Below the pieces are notes generated by a model. That model was not told the DNA's origin. It did not search any database and saw only the letters and a list, made by a program, of their open reading frames with translations. This document shows, piece by piece, positions 2,935 through 21,549 of a DNA stretch of 64,000 nt (within the stretch, counting starts at the first letter, position 1; each line of letters begins with the position of its first letter). Position numbers and translations under genes: made by a program. Source of the DNA: an uncultured Lentisphaeria bacterium (GTDB lineage: Bacteria; Verrucomicrobiota; Lentisphaeria; Victivallales; Victivallaceae); the NCBI GenBank assembly GCA_949282965.1, contig CASDQW010000010.1:4243-68242 (forward strand). Direction: 5' to 3'.

Positions 2935-3724
2935 TTACTTGCTCTTCATTTTCAGGCCGTCGCGACTCCAGTGGTTGTCATCATCATTGATCGTCTTGAG
3001 TTCTCCGGAATAAATCGCCAGATGGTTGTCCCGGTCTCCCCTGACCGATCCCACATGTCCGTCGCACCACAAGACGTTGGCGAACCCGTTGTGACGGCAC
3101 TCCGGCACGTTCGCATTCGTTCCCGCTCCGGTTACGCCGCCGTCGACCACGATATAATAGTTCCGGTGTGTGCTCTCTCCGGCGCCGAAACTGGCGCGCC
3201 ATGCCAGGGAATCGATCAACAGCAACGTGTTCCCCGGCTTTTTAAATTCCGGCACGGGCGGGAGCGCTGAGATAGCCGTCGGCGGTGGTCAACGTCTTTC
3301 TGCCGTGCCAACGGGAGGCGCTGCCGATGTTGTTGGCGTTGTATCCGTAGCTGATGTACTGGCCGTAAATCATATTCGGATTGGCGGTGGAGGCCGGGCA
3401 GTAGAACAGGCGATTCCGGTTGTTGACGCTCTGCTGGGTGGAAAAGTAAAGATTCTTCATCACCTCGCCCCAGGAGGTCTTGGCGTCATAGCTGGAAATC
3501 GTACTGTTCAGAGGATTGTTCCAGCGGAAATAATAGGGAAAGAAGTCCCGATGGTCGTTGGTGTAAAACGCGAAATACCCGCCGATCTGCCGCATGTTGT
3601 TCACACAGGAAATCGCCTTGGCCCGGTCCCGCGCCCGGCCCAGGGCGGGCAGCAGCATGGACGCGAGAATCGCAATAATGGCAATCACTACCAGCAGCTC
3701 GATCAACGTAAAGCGCCTTTTCAT
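2935..3724 (-). pseudogene. DUF1559-type pseudopilin-like protein split by a frameshift (ORFs 3242-3724 and 2935-3255)
   Basis: The 5' ORF carries [28 protein letters not shown] plus the conserved Cys pair. The 3' ORF carries KKPGNTLLLIDS and the H-X9-DG motif HNGFANVLWCDGHV. Intact paralogs in the window hold both halves in one 200-254 aa protein. Both frames are open only between 3242 and 3288. Confidence 0.7.
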
Positions 3725-3968: not shown

Positions 3969-6900
3969 TCAACGTTCGACCGGCAGCAACGCCAGACGCG
4001 ACAGGTTGGTTACGCCTCCCAGCGCGGTAAGCCGCAGCCGGTGCTTTCCCTTCGCCAATTCGAAGTCCTTCGGAAACACCAGATAACTCCATTCCGACGG
4101 CGCGTATCCCGCCACTCCCGTCGAATCCCAGCCCAGCACCGCCACGCGTCTGCCGTCGATGCTCAAGTCCCGCAGCACCTGATTGCCCAGACCGGAAACC
4201 TGAAGCGCCAGCCGGTAGCGTCCCGCCTTCGCCACCTGGAACTCCCATTCCAGATATTTGCCCTCTTCGGCCCAGTAGATCACCCCCATGCCGCCGGGAA
4301 TCGGCGCACGTTTCTCCAGTCGGGCCGCCGGTACGTTCTCGGCGGCGAAATCCGCCGCGTCCAGCAACAGCGCATTCTGCGGCGGTTCCTTCCCGGCGGG
4401 CCGCCCGCGCACCACGCTTCCCGGCACCGTCCGCAGCGTCACTTCCGGCAGTGTTCCGTCCGTCGCGATGCTGACCAGATAGGTGCCCGCACGCAGAAAC
4501 GCCGTCTGCGCCTCATGATGCGCCGCCAGCGTTCCCGTCATGCGGTCGGAGCGGGAACTGACGGTGTAATGCACGGCACCATCCCCCGCGGCAGCGGAAA
4601 CGGTAACCAGACTGTCGGCGGGCAATTCGAAAACCCCGGAAAGAAGTTGTTTGACATCCCCCCCGCCGACCGGCACCGTCCACCGGTCGGCGGCAATCGT
4701 CCGACCGTCGACCAGCAGTTTCCCCTCTTCCCGCCGCGCCGGAGAGGCCGGCACCAGGCTCCGGGCGCCGGGGGTTTCCAGCCGCAGCAGTTCCCGCCCC
4801 TGATACCGGAGAAACGTTCCCTCGGAAAGCATGGCGTCCGCCACCTCCCCGTCCCGGAGCATTACCGCGGCGACGGCCGCATCGGACTCCACGTCTCCCA
4901 GCCGGAATTCCCCGGCGGCTCCCCGGCGGAACACAAGCAGCGTCCGGCCGCCCGGACCGTCGAATTCCGCTCCGGCCGCGGCATCGTTTTCCAGCAGGCG
5001 GGGCGCGGACGTCCGGCTTTCCGGAACGCTACGGCGCGAAATCCGCATGACATTCAAAAATTCGCATTCCCGCGCCGGTCGGGCGTTCTCGGCAAAAGCC
5101 GTCCACTCCGGCTGGGGCCGCGGCAGAGGATCCAGCAGATAACGCTGCATGGGCATCAGATCATACGCCTGCTTGACCTGCCAGACGGCGTCGCGCGGCA
5201 GCAGCATCCGGCTGTTCAGCCGGGCCAGAGGACGGCGGACTTCCAGCTGCGCACCCGACGCCGCCGTGTCCTCCTGCCGGTCGGTATGGGTATGAAGCTG
5301 GTAACGGAAAACGGAAGGCGCATCCGCTTTCAACCGGTCGTAGGTAATGACGAAATCCGGTTTGACGAACACCAGACGCCGCACAAATCCGGACAACGCG
5401 CCCCCATACACTTCCGGCGCCGACGCATCGCCCGCGATCACCCCGAAGTTCGGCGAGTCAAAATACCCGGAACTGACCGCATCCGCCCCCTCGGTCAAAG
5501 ACACCTGCCCCTTGCCGTTCACCAGAATGGTGTTGTGCGCCACCGTCTGGGTGGAATAACCATTGAAATGCGGACTGCCCCACCAGTCGTAATAACCGCC
5601 GTCAATGGCCAGCTTGTCGCCGTAGGCGTTGATCACGAAACTGTTCTGGTCGGCATGCTGATGTCCGGCAAAAAACTTTCCGGCATGAAATCCCACCGCC
5701 ACGTTTTCCCGTCCGTCCGGCAGAAACGTATTGAACAGCGTCACCCCGATGTGCGGATAATACACCGATTGCGGAATCGCCACCGGCGGCTCCGCCCGGA
5801 GCGACCGGTCTCCCGGCATTCCCGCATACCAGAGCGCGACGGCGTCCCCGCTGTGCCGCGCCAGCTTGCCGGTAAAGGCGCGGGCCGCCGGCCCCATCTG
5901 TCCGTGATTGAGCGTCCCGTTGTCGGCAAAGGCGATCTGATACCCCTCCTGCGGCGCACTGTACAGCGGGAAACGCGCCGTTCTGGCCAGCCAGGGATGC
6001 CGGTACAGATCCAGCGGCGTCACCGCCCGCGCAAGATCCACGAACTTCAACGCCAGTCCCGTCCCGTAACTCCAGTACGCCATGCCCTCGTTGTTCTCTC
6101 CGTCGAATCCGAGCGACGGCAGAAACCGGTAGGCGAACATTTTTGCCGCGAAATCAAACCATTCCGCCGCCTCCGGCCATGCCGCCAGCCCGACGGCGGC
6201 AAAGGCAATCACCTGCACCCGGTCCCAGGAATGATTCTGTGCCTCATTGCCGCGGAAAGGATTGGCATCCTCCCAATACTGGCGTCCCCGTTCTTCAATG
6301 GCACCAGCCACAACTTTGCGTTCCTCCGGCGTCATGCTGTGCCAGGCGGCGTCGTAACACCAGACCAGCCCGGTCAGCAGATTGGCGGCCTGAAGATCGC
6401 AATTCTTCATGTGGCTGCCGTTATTCGGATCCCAGGTCCGGGCGATGGCCAGGGCGAGTTCGCGGGCCTTGTCGATGAAATCCCGCCGCCCGGTCAGCAT
6501 GGCGGCCTGCCCGATCGACGCCATCTTCCGCCCGGCCGGAGTGATAATGCCGTCGGCAATCGTACCGTACCATTCAATCCGGGCGCGGATCCGCGGATCG
6601 GCCCCTTCCCGGTAAGGCTGCGGATCCGGCGGCAACTGAAAGTCCAATTCCCTCTCCGCCGCCGCGGCCGCCGCTTCGACATTGCCCCCGCACTGCTCCC
6701 GCGCCAGCGGCAGCAGCCGCGGATGAGGCGTTTTCGCAAGCTGCGAAAAGTCATATGCCGGCAGTTCCCAGCTATGGGCCGGGTCCGGTACCACCACCCG
6801 GTCGCGTCCCGCCACGGTTTCGGACGGCAGCGCGGTCGCCTGCCAGTAGTACAGCCCCGGCGCCAGGACCTCCGGAGAAACGACAAAATTGAACGGCGTT

Positions 6901-7592
6901 TCCACTGTCACGGTCTTTTCCGCCGGAAACGCTGGATCGGTGGAATACTCCAGGCGGTAGCCCTGCGCCCCTTCCACCCGCTCCCAGTTGAAAAGCACCC
7001 GGGCGCTGTAGGAAACCCGCACTCCCGCCAGTGGATTGTAGCGGGGATCCTTCTCAATCCGGAGGTGGCGCACTTCCAGCGTCATTTTCGTCGGAGCGTT
7101 GCTCTCCGAAAGACGACCATACAGGTTGATCCGGTCCAATACGTCCCCTTCCTCCCAGAATTCATTCCGGGTACTCTTCAATCCGGAAAAAGAGACCTGC
7201 GCCTGACGCCATTGCGCGGACGCCGGAAAACGGTGAAACGTCATTCTCTTGCGCGTATCAAACAGGTTAACCCCCAGATAACCGGGATCCACCCCTTCCG
7301 GTCCGGAATTTCGGTATTCAAAGCGCAGCACCAGATCCGGCGCATAGGGCACCCGGTCCGGATTCAGCGACAGAACGCAATAACGGGACGGCACGGTATT
7401 GGTTGCACGCAGAGAATCCTTTTCCGGAGTCACCGACACGTCTCTGGAAGCATTGACCCGGATTCCACCGCCGTTCTGAATACGCCCGTCCTTCACCTCC
7501 AGCACCCGCAGCGGCGCCTCCGCGCGAAGCTCCGCAGCCGCCAGCAGGAATACCGGCAGCGCCCCCCGGAAAATCCAGCTCCAGTTCATCAC
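3969..7592 (-). CDS. DUF4962/heparinase II/III family lyase with a C-terminal carbohydrate-binding-like domain, secreted
   Basis: 1207 aa. Signal peptide MMNWSWIFRGALPVFLLAAAELRAEA. FN3-like FNWERVEGAQGYRLEYSTDPAF. NHSWD...NNEGMAYWSYG helical domain. GHQHADQNSFVINAYGDKLAIDGGYY...VAHNTILVNGKGQ heparinase II/III block. Beta-rich C-terminus (YLEWEFQVAKAGRYRLALQVSG) resembles a CBM. Confidence 0.8.
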   Translation of the reverse strand: MMNWSWIFRGALPVFLLAAAELRAEAPLRVLEVKDGRIQNGGGIRVNASRDVSVTPEKDSLRATNTVPSRYCVLSLNPDRVPYAPDLVLRFEYRNSGPEGVDPGYLGVNLFDTRKRMTFHRFPASAQWRQAQVSFSGLKSTRNEFWEEGDVLDRINLYGRLSESNAPTKMTLEVRHLRIEKDPRYNPLAGVRVSYSARVLFNWERVEGAQGYRLEYSTDPAFPAEKTVTVETPFNFVVSPEVLAPGLYYWQATALPSETVAGRDRVVVPDPAHSWELPAYDFSQLAKTPHPRLLPLAREQCGGNVEAAAAAAERELDFQLPPDPQPYREGADPRIRARIEWYGTIADGIITPAGRKMASIGQAAMLTGRRDFIDKARELALAIARTWDPNNGSHMKNCDLQAANLLTGLVWCYDAAWHSMTPEERKVVAGAIEERGRQYWEDANPFRGNEAQNHSWDRVQVIAFAAVGLAAWPEAAEWFDFAAKMFAYRFLPSLGFDGENNEGMAYWSYGTGLALKFVDLARAVTPLDLYRHPWLARTARFPLYSAPQEGYQIAFADNGTLNHGQMGPAARAFTGKLARHSGDAVALWYAGMPGDRSLRAEPPVAIPQSVYYPHIGVTLFNTFLPDGRENVAVGFHAGKFFAGHQHADQNSFVINAYGDKLAIDGGYYDWWGSPHFNGYSTQTVAHNTILVNGKGQVSLTEGADAVSSGYFDSPNFGVIAGDASAPEVYGGALSGFVRRLVFVKPDFVITYDRLKADAPSVFRYQLHTHTDRQEDTAASGAQLEVRRPLARLNSRMLLPRDAVWQVKQAYDLMPMQRYLLDPLPRPQPEWTAFAENARPARECEFLNVMRISRRSVPESRTSAPRLLENDAAAGAEFDGPGGRTLLVFRRGAAGEFRLGDVESDAAVAAVMLRDGEVADAMLSEGTFLRYQGRELLRLETPGARSLVPASPARREEGKLLVDGRTIAADRWTVPVGGGDVKQLLSGVFELPADSLVTVSAAAGDGAVHYTVSSRSDRMTGTLAAHHEAQTAFLRAGTYLVSIATDGTLPEVTLRTVPGSVVRGRPAGKEPPQNALLLDAADFAAENVPAARLEKRAPIPGGMGVIYWAEEGKYLEWEFQVAKAGRYRLALQVSGLGNQVLRDLSIDGRRVAVLGWDSTGVAGYAPSEWSYLVFPKDFELAKGKHRLRLTALGGVTNLSRLALLPVER

Positions 7593-14080: not shown

Positions 14081-16861
14081 TCATGGCCGAAGCAACTCCG
14101 CCAGGTCCCCGCGATTCCGCCCCCGGGCAATATCGGCGGCCGTCTGACCGCCGCGGTCCCGCAGCGAGGCGTCGGCACCGGCCGCCAGAAGCTCACGAAT
14201 CGCTTCCGGATCCTCGATGTACTGTGCGGCATAATGCAGCGCGGTGCGACCGGAATGATTGGCCTGATTGACGTTCCGCGTACGCTGAATCAACGCCTGA
14301 CGAATCTCCTTCGGTCCGTTCACCTGCATGGTAAACATCAGCGCAGTATCGCCGTCCCGGTCGCCGACGTCCGGATCGGCTCCGGCCTCCAGAAGCACCT
14401 GCACCGTCTCCACGCCTTTGGCGGCGGCGGCCAGATGCAGCGGCACATGACCGTGACCGTCGGGCTTGTCGCACGGAGCGCCGAGCGCCATCAACTTACG
14501 CACCATGATCACGTTGGGCGCCATGGCGGCGACGTGCAGCGGGGTGCGACCGTATTTCGGCTCCGGCCGGTCCAGGGGGTCTCCCGCCTGTTTGAGCACA
14601 TCGATCATATTGGTATCGGTCCCCCTCCGGGCGATGTTGACGGCGGTTTCCCCGGGATAGTTTTCGTACTGCGCGTAGTCAAATCCCAGCTCGATCAGCT
14701 CGCGCACGACGTCCGATGCGTCGTTCCGTCCCGCCACCTGAAACGAATTGTACAACCGGGCGCCATCATTGCAGTCGTAATACTCGCTGCCGCCGAAATT
14801 CAGACTCCATCGCCCGTAAAGATCGATCAGAAATGCCCGATCCGACGCAGTCCAGTTGCCTTGACGAATCAACTCTTTCAACTGTGTCCGTCCCGCATCG
14901 CCTTCACCGCCAAGATACGCCAGCTCGGCGGCGCGCAAGGCCTCCGCCTGTTCCCCGGTAAACAACCGCAATTCGGTCGGAAGATCACTGAACTGCGGCA
15001 CCAGCGGGTACCACAGCCCGCCCCCCGTGCCACGCCAGAAACGGTTGCGGCAGAAATCGGCGAACTTCTCCATTCCGCCGTATTCGCGGATGGTGGCCGC
15101 CGCCTGATCGTAACGGAGCGTCGCCATCTCAAAGAGTGCCCGGTGCACCAGCAGAAAATCATATCCGTCAGAGCCTTTCTCCACCGCTTCAAGCCGTTTG
15201 GCGAACAACCGGTCGCCGCGGGCCGGCATATCCCTCCTCCGGTAAATGTTCTTCCAGCGGTAATCCGGATAATCCCATGCCACGCGGCCGAGTTGAATGA
15301 ACCCCAGCGACGGGATATCCGTATCGTAGCGTTCCGTCGCCATCGCCGCATCGGCCAGCTGCAGGATCAGCTGATGGGAACCGCCCCAGCGCGGCAGCAG
15401 GCCCCAGCTCAGATTGCTGTAGGCGCTGGAAATATCCGGATAAATCTTCACAAGTTTATTGAAAACCTCAATGCGATCCTGCACCGAACCGTCGCCCATC
15501 TCCACCGACAGCAGCTGCACATAGGGATTTCCCCATTCCGGGTGCAGTTCCAACGCCTTGTAAAAAGCGTCGCGCGCCACGCCCAGTTCCCGCCGGAATC
15601 CCTCCCAGCCGCGGCGGCTCACGGTATTGGCAAAGCCGCTGCCGCGGGCGTCCCAGGCCCGGGCGATGGCGGCCCTCCCGGTGATCATTGCCCACATCCA
15701 CGGATCCACCTGATCCCGATCGCCGGCCAGTTCGGCCTCGTAGCGCTTGAAATCGTCGTTGCTGCTGCAACCGGAAATCACATTGTAAACATGGTGCATG
15801 TATTCTCCGGAAGCCCCGGCGCGAAGCTGGTTGAGAAATTCCCGGACCATGGAATTCGTCTGGTTCCGATACATCTGCCCCTCGGAAACGATTCCCCGCA
15901 GGTAGTCAATGGCGCAGGCCCGCAAAAAAGTATTCCGGGGAATCTTCAACAGGCTCCGCCGCACCTCCAGGCCGAACTCCGGCGTCCGGCGCAGCTTCTC
16001 ATCCTGCTCCCGTCGCACCAGCCGGCAGAACTCCGCCAGCGGATCTTCCAGCGGGGTCTCCGACTCCGGCGCGTGATCCCACGCGGCCGCTTCTCCCCTG
16101 ATCCAGCCGCGAACGAAGCAATCGAGCACCGCCGGATCGGCTTTCGGCCACTCGGACCGGATTTTTTCCTCCAGCATCTTCTCCCGCAACGGGGCAAAAT
16201 CCCGATTGGAAACAGCTTTGCTCAGATCGGAAAAGGTTTCCGCGAAGGGATTTTCCGCCGGAGCCTCCTCTTCTTCCGCCGCGTCCTTCTCCGCCAACTG
16301 CCGCATTCGGTGCAACAGTTCCCGCAGCTCACGGGCGTCCTCCGTCATGGAGCGCTGCAACAGCATATCCATTTGTTTTTCGGTGGCGGCCGCCGCGTTT
16401 TTCCACAACGCCCGGGCCGCGATCAGCTCCGGTGAAGACTCCAGCAGTTCCCGGCGTTTCCGGGCCAGCATTCTTACCTGCCGCTGCTGCACGCCGACTT
16501 CCCGCAACCGGGATTCGTCGCCGAGATATTCCCCGTATTGTTTGACAGCCTCCTGATACTGGCGGTCAATTTCAGCGAACTCCCGGTTGTCCCGCCGGAA
16601 TGCCGCCTCCGCCTCCACCATCGCTTTCAGGGCTGCCATTTCCTCTGCCGCCAGCCGTCGGAACGTCGCGTCCTTGATCAGAATCGTCTGAAGCACCCGC
16701 TGCCGGAGTTCATTGAAAGTCTGTTGCCACTGTTCTTTGTACTTTACCGGATCCTCCCGCAGCTTCTCCCAGAGCTCCAGCGCCGGTCCGCCCCGAAGGG
16801 GAAAAGCCGCACCGCACAACACCGCCATCGCGACCGCAACACGTTTCCATAAAGGGATCAT
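14081..16861 (-). CDS. secreted multidomain protein: coiled-coil N-terminus, DUF4034-like helical W/Y-rich core, C-terminal ankyrin repeats
   Basis: 926 aa. Signal peptide MIPLWKRVAVAMAVLCGAAFPLRG. E/R/Q-rich heptad-like region. Core ARAWDARGSGFANTVSRRGWEGFRRELGVARDAFYKALELHPEWGNPY...LPRWGGSHQ. At least four ankyrin units (GRTPLHVAA..., GHVPLHLAAAAKGVETVQVLLEAGADPD, GDTALMF, GRTALHYAAQY...LLAAGADASLRD, GQTAADIA). Confidence 0.75.
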   Translation of the reverse strand: MIPLWKRVAVAMAVLCGAAFPLRGGPALELWEKLREDPVKYKEQWQQTFNELRQRVLQTILIKDATFRRLAAEEMAALKAMVEAEAAFRRDNREFAEIDRQYQEAVKQYGEYLGDESRLREVGVQQRQVRMLARKRRELLESSPELIAARALWKNAAAATEKQMDMLLQRSMTEDARELRELLHRMRQLAEKDAAEEEEAPAENPFAETFSDLSKAVSNRDFAPLREKMLEEKIRSEWPKADPAVLDCFVRGWIRGEAAAWDHAPESETPLEDPLAEFCRLVRREQDEKLRRTPEFGLEVRRSLLKIPRNTFLRACAIDYLRGIVSEGQMYRNQTNSMVREFLNQLRAGASGEYMHHVYNVISGCSSNDDFKRYEAELAGDRDQVDPWMWAMITGRAAIARAWDARGSGFANTVSRRGWEGFRRELGVARDAFYKALELHPEWGNPYVQLLSVEMGDGSVQDRIEVFNKLVKIYPDISSAYSNLSWGLLPRWGGSHQLILQLADAAMATERYDTDIPSLGFIQLGRVAWDYPDYRWKNIYRRRDMPARGDRLFAKRLEAVEKGSDGYDFLLVHRALFEMATLRYDQAAATIREYGGMEKFADFCRNRFWRGTGGGLWYPLVPQFSDLPTELRLFTGEQAEALRAAELAYLGGEGDAGRTQLKELIRQGNWTASDRAFLIDLYGRWSLNFGGSEYYDCNDGARLYNSFQVAGRNDASDVVRELIELGFDYAQYENYPGETAVNIARRGTDTNMIDVLKQAGDPLDRPEPKYGRTPLHVAAMAPNVIMVRKLMALGAPCDKPDGHGHVPLHLAAAAKGVETVQVLLEAGADPDVGDRDGDTALMFTMQVNGPKEIRQALIQRTRNVNQANHSGRTALHYAAQYIEDPEAIRELLAAGADASLRDRGGQTAADIARGRNRGDLAELLRP

Positions 16862-17021
16862 GACCGCATCCTTTCCGATAGTGGAAGTCGACTCTGGATT
16901 ACTATTCCGCCCACTTGTTTTTTTTCAAGTCACGGCGAAATGGCAACAGAAAAAAAGCCGGATTTTTTCTTTGCCGATCCGACCATGCCCCACATTCGAC
17001 CAGGCGAAGCGAAGAATGCCC

Positions 17022-18884
17022 TTACTCCCCGGGCACCCGGATCAGCGCATTGCTGCCGGAATTTTCGACCGGCACCAGCTGCACTTTTTCGGCGCGCAAC
17101 AGTTCCAGCAGCAGCCGGGCCAGATCGGCGTTGATCTGATCGTAAGCCGTCAGATGATCAGGATTGCGCAGCGAACCGCCGATGAAAACCCAGTTGATCC
17201 TGCGCCGTTTCAGTTCCCGCAAAACCTCGTCCGCCGTCTGCGGCAGCGGCCAGAAAATCCATTCCTGAAACCCCGGCGTCCCATTGAACGCCCGGCAGGG
17301 GAAATACAGGGCCCTGCGCTCAAACAGCATCAATACCCGGTCATCCGGTCGCGCCCGTCGGGACAGCTCTTCCAGTGCCACAAAAAATTCTCCGTCCCGC
17401 GCCCCCTGCCGCAGCAGCCGGACCGGTTCGCTCCGCCCCCCCGGCAGCATTTTCCAGCAGTAGTAAAAATGTTTCAGAGCCGGCAACTCTCCCTGGAGAC
17501 TGACCAGCGCCGCCACCGCCAGCACCGCCGCCGCCAGTCGTCGCCAGCGGCGGCTCCACCACCGCAGCGAAGCCGCCCCCAGACACAGCAGTACCGCGTA
17601 GGCCGGCAGCAGGAAGCGCGTCTGCTGCGCTGAACATACCCAGAATAAATACAAAAGCAGCACCATCCCTCCGTAAAGCGTCTCCGGGCTTCTCGCCCGC
17701 CCCTCCCGGCACGCCAGCCAGACCCCCGCCAGCCCCACCGGCACCAGCAAAGCGAACGGCCACCCCATGACGATGCCGTCATAAATCCGGCTGTCAAACG
17801 CCGCCCAGAACCAGCTCAGCAGAATTCCGCTGAGTCCGCCGATGCCGTAATAATAACTTCCCATCAGATAATGGAATCGTTCCACCATCGCCGCACCGGT
17901 CCCCCCCCACCAGCCGGAACCGAACGGATAAACCGGATTGCCCGTCCCCAGCCAGACCCGTCCATAAAACGGCAGAGCCATCAGCAACGCCGTCCCCCCC
18001 AGCCACAGCAGGTTTTGCAGCAGATTCTTCCGTCTCCACGGCAGCACCACCAGCAGAATCATCACGGCGGCACCCGCCGCTGGCAATTTCACGGCCGCCG
18101 TTCCTCCCGCCAGAATCCCCCCCAGCACCAATCGTCCCCGCCCCGCGCCGAGAAAACGGCGCAGCCGCAGCGCCGCCAGTACGTTCAGCACAATGAATGG
18201 TTCCACATACACTTCCCGGCACATGGCTCCCACCACCGGAGAAAATGCGAAAATCAAAACCAGCAACAATGCCATGGGACGAGAAAGATACCGCCGCATT
18301 TCCTGATACAACGCCAGGTCGATGATCAGATAACTCCAGAGAATCACCCCCCGGGCCGCCCCCAGTCCCCCCAGTGCCACCACCCACAGCAACACGAATT
18401 GCGGTAAGGCCGGATAGGCGGAATAGGGATTGTCCAACTGTACTGCCGCCGTTCCCTCCATCAGCCAACGCATCGGCAACGCCAGCTGATACGTCTGTTC
18501 ATCCCAGGCATACGGCGGAATCAGCGCGGATCCCAGCATAAACACACCGCCCGCCACCGCCAGGATGCCGGCCGGGCAATTCCGCCGCCACCAGCGGCCG
18601 ACGCCGCCGTGCCACAAACGCATCCCGCCGTATCCTGCCGCCGCCAGCACCGGTGCCCACAACCACCAGCGCCCCTGCGGCAGCACCGCCGCGGCACCGA
18701 TCAGCGCCGCGAGCGCCAGAAGATTGACGCCCAGCACCAGTTCCACCAGAAACCCGTGCCCGCGCCGGAACTCCAGCCGACGGCAAAGTCCGGCGCCGAC
18801 GCCATATGCCGCCAGCAGAAACAGCGGCGGCGTCAGCACATTCAGCCACAACGGCCCCATCCAGGTGCTGATCAAAGCATTCAT
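17022..18884 (-). CDS. polytopic membrane protein, GT-C-like (ArnT/PMT-type) glycosyltransferase candidate with a soluble C-terminal domain
   Basis: Start set at MNALISTWMGPLWLNV (ATG 18884), which overlaps the upstream stop as ATGA (18881-18884). At least 10 hydrophobic helices. First-loop motif PPYAWDEQTYQLALPM resembles the acidic loop-1 motif of the GT39/GT83 families. The family assignment is tentative. Confidence 0.6.
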   Translation of the reverse strand: MNALISTWMGPLWLNVLTPPLFLLAAYGVGAGLCRRLEFRRGHGFLVELVLGVNLLALAALIGAAAVLPQGRWWLWAPVLAAAGYGGMRLWHGGVGRWWRRNCPAGILAVAGGVFMLGSALIPPYAWDEQTYQLALPMRWLMEGTAAVQLDNPYSAYPALPQFVLLWVVALGGLGAARGVILWSYLIIDLALYQEMRRYLSRPMALLLVLIFAFSPVVGAMCREVYVEPFIVLNVLAALRLRRFLGAGRGRLVLGGILAGGTAAVKLPAAGAAVMILLVVLPWRRKNLLQNLLWLGGTALLMALPFYGRVWLGTGNPVYPFGSGWWGGTGAAMVERFHYLMGSYYYGIGGLSGILLSWFWAAFDSRIYDGIVMGWPFALLVPVGLAGVWLACREGRARSPETLYGGMVLLLYLFWVCSAQQTRFLLPAYAVLLCLGAASLRWWSRRWRRLAAAVLAVAALVSLQGELPALKHFYYCWKMLPGGRSEPVRLLRQGARDGEFFVALEELSRRARPDDRVLMLFERRALYFPCRAFNGTPGFQEWIFWPLPQTADEVLRELKRRRINWVFIGGSLRNPDHLTAYDQINADLARLLLELLRAEKVQLVPVENSGSNALIRVPGE

Positions 18885-20683
18885 TGGCCTCCCTCCAGCA
18901 TCTCCCGGGGAATGCGGTGAACATTGACGTCCCATTCCGGGTGACGGCGCAGCTGCGACAGAAACGACAGCGGCAGGCCTTTTCGGCGCATGACCTCGTC
19001 CCGCCGCATCCGAATTTTTGCCGCCTCTTCGCGACGCCCCAGCGCCTCCAGCACCTGCCGCCATTGGTCAAGATTGACCGCGCCATACGGATAATTCCGC
19101 TGTTCCGCCTCGAAAAACGGCAGAGATTCCTCCAATTTCCCCTGAACCGCCAGTGCACGAGCTCGCAATCCCTGACAGTGCAGATAATTTCCCGCCGCGC
19201 TTTCCAGCTGCAACCGGTCCAGAAACAACAGCGCCGCTTCCGGATCTTTGCGGTCGAAGAGCGCTTCCGCAGCTCCCGCGTACAGATTGCGCGCATCCGT
19301 TTTCCATTTCCGGGCGGCATTCCAGGCGACAGCGGCAGCCTCGCGTTCTCCCCGTTCCCCCGCCAGCAGCGCGGCCCGGGCATGCCAGCCGCTCCCGGCT
19401 GAGCGTACCAGAAACACCAGTAGAAAAACCGCCAGCACCACTTGAACCGCGCGCAAAGGCCAGTACACCGTACTCTCCTGTTTTTCCGGCGTTTCAGTCT
19501 CTTCCCGCACCGCTGCCCGACATGCGACCGGCCCGGAGGCATAGCCCCAGAAAACCCCGGCGCAAACCCAGAAAAAAGTATCCAGCGGCCATTGGCTCAA
19601 CAACACATCAAACTGTCCATGCAAGCCGACAAGCGTAAAAAGAAACAGCAGAGCTCCGATTCGGCCCGGTTCCGACCTTCCGACAGGTGTCCGACGCACC
19701 TTGAACAATGCACTTCCAGCCGCCAGCAACACCGCCGCCCACCACAGTACGCCCGGTAAACCGAATTCCGCCGCGAAACGCAGAATTTCATTATGCGGAT
19801 GCGGATTGAATTCAGTGGCAAAAACGCTTTGATGATAAACATCCGGCAGATACGGTCGAATCTCCCCCGCAAAACGCCCTGGTCCCACACCGAGCACCGG
19901 ATGAGCACAGGTCAAAGCCACCGCCCCCTGTGCCAGACCATTGCGGATCCCATCATCGCTGCGCACCAGCAGAACCACTCCCCCCAGCAGAACCACGCCA
20001 CACAGACAGCCCAGCCATATCGTCGCCGGCTTGCTCCGGTAACGCAGGAACCCCGCCACCAGCACACCGCCCACCAATGCCGCCAGCATCCCGCGCGGCA
20101 GAAAGTCCTGCCTCGGTAACAGCACAATCACCAGTCCCAGCAATACTCCCGGCCAGAGTCGGCGACGCAGTAAAAGAAAGGATAAAGCCGCCAGTCCCGC
20201 CACCACCAGCGTGGCGCTCCAATTCCAATTGCCGCTCAAACCGTGCGGAACTCCTCTTTTCCATGCCGTCCACAGCGCCACAGCTCCGGCAACCGTGCCA
20301 AGCCCCCCCAGATACCACAACAACGCATGAGAAAAGCGCCGCCAGTATAAAGCCCCCAGCAGAACCAGCAGGAAAACGTAAAGTCCCTCCAGCAGCAATT
20401 CATGATTCCCCCGCCAACGGTAATAATGCAACAGCAAAACCACGCATGCCGGCACCGCCAGCCAGATCATGCGGTGCAGCAACCGGTCATCCCGCAGAAA
20501 AAAACGCCGAAGCCGCTCCGGCTCCATACTGATCAGCAGCAGCGCCAGCAGCGCCAGGGCGGCATGGCCGAACAGCCGCACCTCCTCGAAGTACGTCATG
20601 CCGCACCAAAGCAGCGGATAACAGACGATCGACGCCATTAAAAACAGACAGGGGATTCTCGCAGGTGACATGAAAAATCGCAT
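18881..20683 (-). CDS. O-antigen ligase/Wzy_C superfamily membrane protein with a C-terminal TPR-like domain
   Basis: Multi-TM N-terminus. Wzy_C signature loop FATEFNPHPHNEILRFAAEFGLPGVLWW. Helical repeats in the C-terminal 180 aa (DPEAALLFLDRL...YLHCQGLRARALAVQGKLEESLPFFE...). Confidence 0.75.
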   Translation of the reverse strand: MRFFMSPARIPCLFLMASIVCYPLLWCGMTYFEEVRLFGHAALALLALLLISMEPERLRRFFLRDDRLLHRMIWLAVPACVVLLLHYYRWRGNHELLLEGLYVFLLVLLGALYWRRFSHALLWYLGGLGTVAGAVALWTAWKRGVPHGLSGNWNWSATLVVAGLAALSFLLLRRRLWPGVLLGLVIVLLPRQDFLPRGMLAALVGGVLVAGFLRYRSKPATIWLGCLCGVVLLGGVVLLVRSDDGIRNGLAQGAVALTCAHPVLGVGPGRFAGEIRPYLPDVYHQSVFATEFNPHPHNEILRFAAEFGLPGVLWWAAVLLAAGSALFKVRRTPVGRSEPGRIGALLFLFTLVGLHGQFDVLLSQWPLDTFFWVCAGVFWGYASGPVACRAAVREETETPEKQESTVYWPLRAVQVVLAVFLLVFLVRSAGSGWHARAALLAGERGEREAAAVAWNAARKWKTDARNLYAGAAEALFDRKDPEAALLFLDRLQLESAAGNYLHCQGLRARALAVQGKLEESLPFFEAEQRNYPYGAVNLDQWRQVLEALGRREEAAKIRMRRDEVMRRKGLPLSFLSQLRRHPEWDVNVHRIPREMLEGGQ

Positions 20684-20778
20684 AGAGAACAGCCAAAATC
20701 ATTCGCCGGACTTCATCTGGCCGGCCTGAATTCATCAATCATCGGCAACCTCAGAGTTTGCCGCTGCCTAAGAAATGA

Positions 20779-20806
20779 TAAAAAAAAGGAGGCCGAAGCC
20801 TCCTTA
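20779..20806 (-). terminator. rho-independent (bidirectional-looking) terminator after pilin-like gene D
   Basis: aggaggc-cgaa-gcctcct perfect 7 bp hairpin (20787-20804) flanked by an A-run on the plus strand (= U-run on the minus strand). It lies 38 nt after the stop at 20844. Confidence 0.7.
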
Positions 20807-20843
20807 TTTTCTGAAAAACTCTGAATTCTTCTCAGAAGAAATC

Positions 20844-21443
20844 TTAGTTTCCAGCGTTCGGCCACATGTAGGACGCACCGCGGTTGTCCGAGGTGTACCA
20901 GTTCTGACCGGCATAACCGCTCACGTGACCGTCATGGAACAGGATGTTACCGAAATCGCTGTGGTTCGGAATGTCAGTGGTACTGGTCGTACCGTTCGTC
21001 TTGCTCACGCCAGTGCTGTAGATGTCAGAGGCAATACCGGAATCGGCACGGCCAAACGCATTGGAGTCGCCTTCCATCATGTTGGCGGCAAACGCGTAGT
21101 CGCAGTTGGCGTCATCGGCAGTCCCCTGGGACAACGCTTCCGTACCGGTCCCGCGGGTCGTCGTGGTGGACGGGCAGGCATAGACGCCGTAGTCAGTCAG
21201 GTAGTCGTTCTTACGCAGCAGTTCCAGACCATTCGCGCCACCCGCGAACGGGAACCGGTCGGAGTAGTCGATGCTGTACTGCTTCAGAGACAGACCGATC
21301 TGCTTCAGGTTGGAGGTGCAGGAAATACGGCGGGCCTTTTCACGGGCCTGGTTCAGGGCCGGCAACAACATACCGGCGAGGATCGCGATGATCGCGATCA
21401 CGACGAGCAACTCGATAAGAGTAAACCCACGATTTTTTCTCAT
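20844..21443 (-). CDS. type IV pilin/pseudopilin-like protein with canonical Gly(-1) leader, Ser/Thr-rich tracts and H-X9-DG
   Basis: MRKNRG|[44 protein letters not shown]...[21 protein letters not shown]...[36 protein letters not shown] lies 9 nt upstream of ATG 21443; the upstream ATG 21458 has no RBS. Confidence 0.85.
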
Positions 21444-21520
21444 TTTTTTCGTCTCCATTAACAGGTTTTACTATTCGGCATCACGCGAAATGGTATCGCA
21501 GACTCCGCTAACTACCTTTT

Positions 21521-21549
21521 AGTTTAGCAAAAAAAACCCAAAAATGCAA
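21521..21549 (-). promoter_or_regulatory. sigma70-like promoter candidate for pilin-like gene D
   Basis: Minus strand reads TTGCAT-N17-TAAACT, about 75 nt upstream of the start, in an AT-rich intergenic region. Sequence inspection only. Confidence 0.35.

Follow-up and report, generated by a model that had tools for sequence, protein, structure and literature searches.

Whether a pilin gene and the two polytopic membrane enzymes encoded behind it form a pathway for modifying that pilin, or are simply neighbours, is the question raised by a locus in the Victivallaceae (Lentisphaeria, Victivallales). The locus lies in a 64,000-nucleotide stretch of DNA, referred to below as the window, from contig CASDQW010000010.1 of an uncultured bacterium (GenBank assembly GCA_949282965.1), a 2.8-Mb metagenome-assembled genome of 127 contigs whose nearest public relatives are animal-gut Victivallaceae. 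Four genes on the minus strand between positions 14081 and 21443 encode a prepilin, a Wzy_C-family protein with a tetratricopeptide repeat tail (Wzy_C-TPR), a glycosyltransferase-like protein of the GT-C type and an ankyrin protein, and the listing of open reading frames (ORFs) places all four where a sequence-only reading of the window had put them. That reading proposed a pilin glycosylation module. We consider it rather probable that the pilin, Wzy_C-TPR and GT-C constitute a dedicated pilin O-glycosylation cassette of the Victivallales. The conserved gene order, the co-occurrence and the accessory status of the Wzy_C enzyme speak for the proposal, and two of its elements, membership of the ankyrin protein and the details borrowed from TfpO, had to be given up. 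Gene content, folds, conserved catalytic residues, synteny, co-occurrence, gene fusion and the terminator are observed; glycosylation itself we infer.

The arrangement of the three genes extends far beyond the window. A species search across GTDB with the globular domain of the pilin as query yielded 73 loci of this pilin subfamily. The Wzy_C-TPR gene is directly downstream on the same strand in 36 of them and the GT-C gene comes next in 34 of those, meaning that pilin, Wzy_C-TPR and GT-C are syntenic at the loci of about 34 species; an order not kept in any relative was one of the grounds that the sequence-only reading had named for abandoning it. Wzy_C-TPR was found in 44 of 60 relatives, and tblastn of the loci gave the same gene order in most of them. 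Cultured Victivallis vadensis DSM 14823 is among the syntenic loci (NZ_QEKH01000011.1, about 107.9-113.3 kb, locus L057). Between the pilin and Wzy_C-TPR genes lie 160 nt in the window, and at most of the 34 loci the distance is 60-270 nt. Clustering of neighbouring ORFs showed that the three cassette families alone are shared across loci, the flanks being occupied by unrelated housekeeping genes such as proB and miaB. Pilin orthologues are 52-95% identical across the order and the enzymes are less conserved (23-87%), yet synteny with the pilin is retained even at 23-30% enzyme identity.

The distribution of the genes among genomes follows the same pattern. Both pilin and enzyme occur in 38 of 61 genomes, the enzyme only in 6, the pilin only in 3 and neither in 14 (Fisher p = 8e-7), and within the family the corresponding numbers are 24, 4, 0 and 9 (p = 6e-6), both tests taking genomes as independent and ignoring their kinship. 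Three of the enzyme-only cases are contigs that end at the expected position of the pilin, and the co-occurrence persists in genomes where the genes are unlinked. Together with the accessory status of the enzyme, its coupling to GT-C and the transcript design described below, synteny and co-occurrence make the linkage between pilin and enzymes specific and beyond chance.

The pilin-linked Wzy_C-TPR is an accessory copy, not the core Wzy_C of the order. A second Wzy_C-TPR protein of 633 amino acids is encoded among housekeeping genes on contig C60 (G000:C60:21557-23458; L002 721-2622, minus strand) and is barely alignable to the pilin-linked one. Because 56 of 61 Victivallales genomes carry this paralogue, it counts as a core gene of the order; among the 56 are 8 of the 9 genomes of the family that are without the cassette, the ninth being about 81% complete. 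It may represent a core O-antigen ligase whose TPR tail is unusual, and appears the better candidate for a housekeeping ligase.

Pilin and enzymes are separated by an intrinsic terminator, already noted in the sequence-only reading and recovered here as a hairpin with a T-run. An equivalent hairpin and T-run follows the pilin stop codon in 31 of 34 orthologous loci, as against 40 of 680 shuffled controls (6%), and its stem sequences vary among lineages. The promoter-like element proposed for the pilin gene is less convincing: the best candidate (TTGCAT at 21549-21544, 17 nt, TAAACT at 21526-21521) agrees with the sigma-70 consensus at 7 of 12 positions and was not called by the scan. A search by eye for a sigma-54 promoter upstream of the pilin gene found none. 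The pilin start codon (21443) is preceded at 9-10 nt by GGAG. The codon adaptation of the pilin gene ranks in the top 6% of 1881 ORFs, whereas that of the enzymes is low, the Wzy_C-TPR gene ranking in the bottom 14%, a difference that, with the terminator, suggests separate levels of expression. Matches to the stretch were confined to bird and chicken gut-metagenome DNA runs, with no RNA run among them.

The second gene encodes a member of the Wzy_C superfamily, scoring 36.6 bits against PF04932 (cut-off 31.7), a family matched by 25 of 27 orthologues, and the TPR tail ascribed to the protein is recovered by both profile and fold. An AlphaFold2 model built from the 27 orthologues is confident (predicted local distance difference test, pLDDT, 88.6; predicted TM-score, pTM, 0.89). 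The sole significant fold match of its membrane part is the ligase WaaL (7tpg), and the tail matches TPR proteins. At the profile level the family matches WaaL 7tpg (E = 1e-10) and the oligosaccharyltransferase 9rmk (E = 9e-8). Profiles and folds were needed for this, as searches of the PDB with the single sequences of either enzyme gave nothing useful; a word-indexed homologue search for Wzy_C-TPR returned 13 proteins with uninformative names. Arg247 and His297, the arginine of the periplasmic loop and the catalytic histidine that are typical of the superfamily, are invariant in 27 sequences and align to the functional Arg and His of 7tpg and 9rmk; their equivalents are R288 and H338 in Escherichia coli WaaL and R298 and H349 in Neisseria meningitidis PglL (PMC3643930). 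Topology, assigned for both enzymes by the positive-inside rule and by homology to WaaL, predicts that an additional thirteenth transmembrane helix (residues 408-430) precedes the TPR domain and carries it into the periplasm.

The third gene encodes a protein whose PMT_2 score (26.8 bits) barely exceeds the cut-off of 26.1, but the GT-C-like identity suggested for it is supported by a very confident structural model (pLDDT 92.4), for which Foldseek returned ArnT 5f15 as the best match (E = 6.5e-7), followed by ALG9, ALG12, AftA, AglB and Pmt4. The family shares a P-x-x-W-D-E-x-x-Y loop and further conserved periplasmic motifs; within the loop W127, D128 and Y132 never vary and E129 hardly does. 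This acidic motif in a predicted periplasmic loop, on a GT-C fold, is what characterises TfpW-type enzymes. About four transmembrane helices are predicted ahead of the catalytic loop, which would place the N-terminus in the periplasm, and the last 135 residues fold into a small alpha/beta domain. Since Pfam recognises just 5 of 28 members, the family is essentially unmodelled there, and among 301 genomes of the phylum it is confined to the Victivallales bar one weak match. Runs of 7-8 G occur four times in the 1.86-kb GT-C gene (gene positions 762, 885, 977 and 1443) and once in the Wzy_C gene, the genome average being 94 such runs per Mb. The tracts are not kept in a relative of 87% identity or in other orthologues. 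Slipped-strand on/off switching of the GT-C gene is possible.

The two enzymes are closely coupled. Direct reading confirms that the TGA stop codon of Wzy_C-TPR and the ATG of GT-C overlap as ATGA, and in most loci stop and start overlap or are at most 20 nt apart. In four species of one Victivallaceae genus the two are fused in a single ORF of 1191-1254 amino acids (L138, L139, L140 and L141, in genomes G112, G298, G225 and G192), and the pilin subfamily is encoded elsewhere in these genomes. A fusion was accepted only when both sets of motifs lay within one ORF; L134 was rejected, as its two enzymes are in different frames despite an open frame of about 1200 amino acids. The fused proteins have no additional transmembrane helix at the junction, and their TPR lies N-terminal to the GT-C part, between the two enzymes. 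A junction of this kind is what the predicted topology calls for, in which the C-terminus of the TPR and the N-terminus of GT-C would both be periplasmic.

The first gene encodes a type IV pilin-like or pseudopilin-like protein with a basic leader of six residues, Gly at -1 and Glu at +5. It scores 41.8 bits against N_methyl (PF07963) and 41.2 bits against the DUF1559 N-terminus (PF07596, residues 37-74), and with its C-terminal motif belongs to the H-X9-DG/DUF1559 family. Gly-1 is conserved in 13 of 13 aligned orthologues. It occurs in just 5 of the 89 FTLIELL-type prepilin-like genes of the genome and, among the five in the window, in the cassette pilin only, which was rightly singled out in the sequence-only reading as the one paralogue with a canonical leader. 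The remaining genes of this type, among them the copies near 3724, 8328, 12628 and 62867 of the window, have S, R, T, F, H, P or other residues at -1, and because of this most H-X9-DG paralogues may escape cutting by the canonical prepilin peptidase. The genome itself appears equipped to process and assemble the cassette pilin, with one prepilin peptidase gene (Peptidase_A24, C60:13081-13425) and several ATPases of PilB/GspE/PilT type. In V. vadensis the cassette pilin is duplicated in tandem (L057 5797-7339, with the two copies at 5797-6306 and 6785-7339), as it is in L043, L049, L051, L056 and L063, and many genomes have extra unlinked copies of the subfamily, up to 10.

A richness of this pilin in Ser and Thr had also been noted, and it stands out when compared with all 89 prepilin-like proteins. 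The globular part contains 20.2% S+T (mean 14.5 +/- 2.8%; rank 2 of 89), and its densest window of 15 residues, with 9 S/T, ranks first. The first of two Ser/Thr tracts has a conserved core, C-[PA]-S-[TS]-x-x ... G-[TS]-G-T (mature residues 84-95), in which the Cys, the Ser and the final Thr are invariant among 11 orthologues. Many indels fall in the region of the second tract when the orthologues are aligned, and this region contains the top-ranking window. In the H-X9-DG motif the residues N, H, G, N, L and G do not vary among the orthologues. No conservation and no terminal Ser/Thr were found among the pilin C-termini of the orthologue alignment (…PNAGN, …QTGE, …GQIK and others). Judged by these sequence features, the cassette subfamily has the look of a genuine pilin that is processed, highly expressed and probably modified. 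The coordinates of all features are collected in Table 1.

Table 1. Position of the genes, domains and motifs of the locus in the window.
Feature	Position	Strand	Basis or remark
Prepilin gene, 199 amino acids (193 mature), DUF1559/H-X9-DG class	20844..21443	-	PF07963, PF07596, TIGR02532
Class III leader MRKNRG, Gly-1, followed by mature F1 and E5 (MRKNRG/FTLIE)	21426..21443	-	sequence
Ser/Thr tract 1, 25 residues, mature 84-108	21102..21176	-	proposed glycosylation site
Ser/Thr tract 2, 15 residues, mature 137-151	20973..21017	-	length-variable S/T/G/N-rich loop
H-X9-DG motif, 12 residues at 161-172	20928..20963	-	sequence, conserved columns
Intrinsic terminator 3' of the pilin gene, hairpin AAGGAGGC-TTCG-GCCTCCTT and T-run	20786..20805	-	terminator scan
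Wzy_C-family membrane enzyme, 600 amino acids, about 13 transmembrane helices, C-terminal TPR	18881..20683	-	PF04932; candidate O-oligosaccharyltransferase
Arg247, 50 residues upstream of His297	19934-19951	-	invariant column
HPHNE motif with invariant His297	19787..19801	-	aligned to catalytic His of WaaL and PglL
TPR domain, residues 431-600, predicted periplasmic	18884..19393	-	profile and fold matches
GT-C-fold glycosyltransferase, 620 amino acids, polytopic	17022..18884	-	PMT_2 (borderline), fold
YAWDEQTYQ loop motif, predicted periplasmic catalytic acidic motif	18486..18512	-	invariant columns, topology
Signal-peptide protein, 926 amino acids, C-terminal ankyrin repeats	14081..16861	-	Ank families; outside the conserved cassette

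Besides the disregard of kinship in the Fisher tests, several observations weigh against a dedicated glycosylation cassette. Adjacency alone means little in a genome so rich in pilin-like genes, and the pilin is encoded apart from the enzymes in about eight genomes of the family. The strong terminator between pilin and enzymes shows that co-transcription is not required. The partnership of Wzy_C-TPR and GT-C is not obligatory everywhere either, since one complete chromosome (G017; L015, 1226208-1230959) has pilin, pilin and Wzy_C-TPR at the locus and no GT-C genome-wide, and some genomes of family f6 have GT-C without a recognisable Wzy_C gene alongside. Comparison of the flanks found no genes for sugar-donor biosynthesis linked to the cassette loci. 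When the TPR tail is removed, the enzyme profile scores slightly higher with WaaL 7tpg (35.4 bits) than with 9rmk (29.8 bits). At E <= 0.1, PglL_A (PF15864), the motif by which PglL is told apart from WaaL, was absent from the window protein and from all 27 orthologues; it is also missing from PilO/TfpO (PMC3643930). Sequence analysis has been found to fail in separating O-oligosaccharyltransferases from WaaL or Wzy (PMC3643930), and neither fold nor sequence discriminates between them here.

The distribution of the enzyme also bears on how many substrates it serves. In a general system resembling that of PglL, many periplasmic or surface proteins would be O-glycosylated, perhaps including other H-X9-DG paralogues, and the pilin would be one substrate or the most abundant one. 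With 89 prepilin-like proteins in the genome potential substrates are plentiful, broad recognition is possible for TPR domains, and the pilin is unlinked in several genomes as are pglL and pilE in Neisseria. The length of 600 amino acids matches PglL/PglS and not TfpO/TfpM, and the internal Ser/Thr tract would likewise suit the former (PMC9829042). We nevertheless hold this to be unlikely: the enzyme is missing exactly where the pilin subfamily is missing, though many other DUF1559 genes remain in those genomes, its synteny with this one subfamily is tight across the order, and the PglL_A motif is absent.

Less likely again is a pair of enzymes serving glycolipids or polysaccharides, with Wzy_C-TPR as an O-antigen ligase or a Wzy-type polymerase of lipopolysaccharide (LPS), capsule or exopolysaccharide, GT-C modifying lipid A or the polymer in the manner of ArnT/GtrC, and the pilin as a mere neighbour. 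Such a function would leave unexplained why the enzymes track one pilin subfamily, and why synteny with it survives an enzyme identity of 23-30%. None of about 30 loci is flanked by LPS or polysaccharide genes, 17 of 61 relatives lack the cassette, and for a ligase the near-universal Wzy_C-TPR paralogue is the better candidate. These arguments are set against top structural and profile matches to WaaL 7tpg and ArnT 5f15, against the terminator that divides the pilin from the enzymes, and against the frequent occurrence of periplasmic TPR domains in proteins of polysaccharide export. That the enzymes build a polymer which is exported or anchored by a pilin-like filament (pseudopilus-driven secretion), or that the genes are linked without a shared function, is very improbable: the several GspE/PilB-type ATPases of the genome would suit the former, but the enzymes are transferases embedded in the membrane and not cargo for secretion, and the cassette pilin differs from enzyme-paired paralogues in its Gly-1, its shorter length and its far higher conservation, while chance linkage is excluded by synteny and co-occurrence.

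Under the preferred reading of a dedicated O-glycosylation cassette, the prepilin would enter the inner membrane via its N-terminal helix and be cut after Gly-1 by the single prepilin peptidase. Its globular domain would be glycosylated in the periplasm on Ser/Thr of the C-P-S-T-T-T...G-T-G-T tract, of the variable loop, or of both; the most likely candidate sites, to go by composition and conservation, are the core of tract 1 and/or the variable S/T/G/N loop. Wzy_C-TPR, with its 13 transmembrane helices and with Arg247 and His297 in the loop, would move a glycan linked to undecaprenyl diphosphate en bloc to the pilin, which might be docked as acceptor by the periplasmic TPR domain. GT-C, translationally coupled or fused to it, would add or extend sugars on the pilin or on the glycan from a monosaccharide linked to undecaprenyl phosphate. 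The pilin would be made at a high level from its own terminated transcript and the enzymes at a low level, through read-through or a weak internal promoter. What we infer in this scheme is which protein is the acceptor, which donors are used, where the glycan is attached and that the TPR serves in docking.

A bolder version of the scheme, of which we are doubtful, is a periplasmic machine with two active sites, one polypeptide of 1,200 amino acids in some species, that builds the glycan directly on the pilin. Wzy_C would place a lipid-diphosphate primer on a new internal sequon (C-P-S-T-T-T...G-T-G-T), GT-C would extend it processively from lipid-monophosphate sugars, and the TPR between them would hold the pilin. 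If true, bacterial O-oligosaccharyltransferases would gain a fifth class, a member of the very large H-X9-DG/DUF1559 family would have its biochemical fate assigned for the first time, and the pilus might be protected from phages of the gut.

Two candidates were rejected. Contig C91 (L001, 1747 bases), which carries a pilin gene (53% identical) and a Wzy_C gene (30% identical), was considered as a paralogous locus. Its DNA is 76-83% identical to loci of the genus Victivallis and its G+C content is 55.5%, compared to 59.7% for the genome; for these reasons it was left out of the paralogue count, being more likely mis-binned and probably a fragment of a co-resident Victivallis. The ankyrin protein was considered as a member of the module and dismissed, since the one homologue found, 88% identical, is that of the nearest relative (L035). 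Its gene is set off from GT-C by a gap of 160 nt and by a promoter-like site of its own (16928-16901). The signal peptide and the ankyrin repeats described for this protein are present; only ankyrin families were detected, and nothing DUF4034-like. Its N-terminal part is long and helical, and its best NCBIfam matches are weak ones to Legionella Dot/Icm ankyrin effectors, via the repeats only.

The cassette would be the first pilin glycosylation system described for its bacterial group. Pilin O-glycosylation has been studied almost exclusively in Proteobacteria, and searches of the full-text literature found no report that ties DUF1559/H-X9-DG proteins, or the pilins of Victivallis or Lentisphaerae, to glycosylation. 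The H-X9-DG/DUF1559 family is enigmatic, with tens to hundreds of paralogues in each genome of the Planctomycetes-Verrucomicrobia-Chlamydiae (PVC) group. The cultured, non-pathogenic type strain V. vadensis DSM 14823 carries the cassette and the prediction is directly testable there. O-oligosaccharyltransferases are used for the production of bioconjugate vaccines, and each new class (PglL, PglS, TfpO and TfpM) has widened the range (PMC9829042); a class with a TPR, a new internal sequon and a coupled GT-C would, if true, be of practical interest for such bioconjugates.

Of the known systems, WaaL of Cupriavidus metallidurans (7tpg) is the best fold and profile match and has the same Arg and His in a periplasmic loop. 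WaaL enzymes have about 400 amino acids and 12 transmembrane helices, are devoid of a TPR, are encoded in LPS core clusters and are needed wherever O-antigen is attached. The cassette gene, in contrast, is accessory, tracks a pilin and lies outside LPS clusters; it is absent from 17 of 61 genomes, and its flanks are housekeeping or unrelated genes.

In TfpO (PilO; Pseudomonas aeruginosa 1244 and Acinetobacter) and TfpM (Moraxellaceae) a Wzy_C enzyme with a catalytic His is encoded directly downstream of its pilin, as it is here, but these enzymes have 420-470 amino acids and no TPR, and their acceptor is a C-terminal Ser/Thr of the pilin (PMC9829042). The cassette enzyme has 600 amino acids, an extra transmembrane helix, a periplasmic TPR and a coupled GT-C. 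The analogy with TfpO that the sequence-only reading had drawn holds for the position on the same strand downstream of the pilin, and fails for the size of the enzyme and for the C-terminal acceptor.

PglL of Neisseria and PglS of Acinetobacter baylyi, whose acceptor is ComP, act on internal sequons. They resemble the cassette enzyme in their size class (520-600 amino acids), their internal Ser/Thr-rich acceptor may have a counterpart in the cassette pilin, and PglS adjoins its pilin-like acceptor (PMC9829042, PMC3643930); adjacency to pilin genes was also recorded for 21 of 31 predicted PglL homologues (PMC3643930). The cassette profile matches 9rmk around the Arg and the His. With 600 amino acids the enzyme is within this size range, and the Ser/Thr tract of the pilin appears both internal and conserved, features that suggest a better fit to PglL/PglS than to TfpO. 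The cassette differs in having no PglL_A (PF15864), in its C-terminal TPR array, in the coupled or fused GT-C and in an H-X9-DG/DUF1559 pilin of a PVC bacterium.

TfpW of P. aeruginosa Pa5196/PA7, an arabinofuranosyltransferase for group IV pilins, is a GT-C enzyme with a periplasmic TPR domain that is encoded downstream of pilA (bioRxiv 10.1101/2020.04.19.049825). As a precedent for the second enzyme it had been overlooked in the sequence-only reading. It shares with the cassette GT-C a fold for which ArnT is the closest template, an acidic motif in a periplasmic loop (essential in TfpW) and a gene downstream of the pilin; a periplasmic TPR in the system and multiple Ser/Thr acceptor sites, candidate ones in the cassette, are further points of likeness (bioRxiv 10.1101/2020.04.19.049825). 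In TfpW, however, the TPR is the C-terminal domain of the GT-C itself and there is no Wzy_C partner, whereas in the cassette it is carried by Wzy_C, and the cassette GT-C has about four transmembrane helices before the catalytic loop and the small alpha/beta domain at its C-terminus. Unlike in TfpW, no genes of a D-arabinofuranose pathway were found linked to the cassette.

The TfpO and TfpM genes are found downstream of their pilins (PMC9829042), a position that the cassette enzymes share. Because the size and acceptor of TfpO/TfpM do not apply, PglL_A is absent, and the TPR is on Wzy_C and not on GT-C, the cassette belongs to none of the TfpO/TfpM, PglL or TfpW families. By its sequence features it seems to combine traits of both known kinds of pilin glycosyltransferase, the Wzy_C enzyme encoded beside its pilin (TfpO, TfpM and PglS; PMC9829042, PMC3643930) and the GT-C enzyme that goes with a periplasmic TPR (TfpW; bioRxiv 10.1101/2020.04.19.049825).

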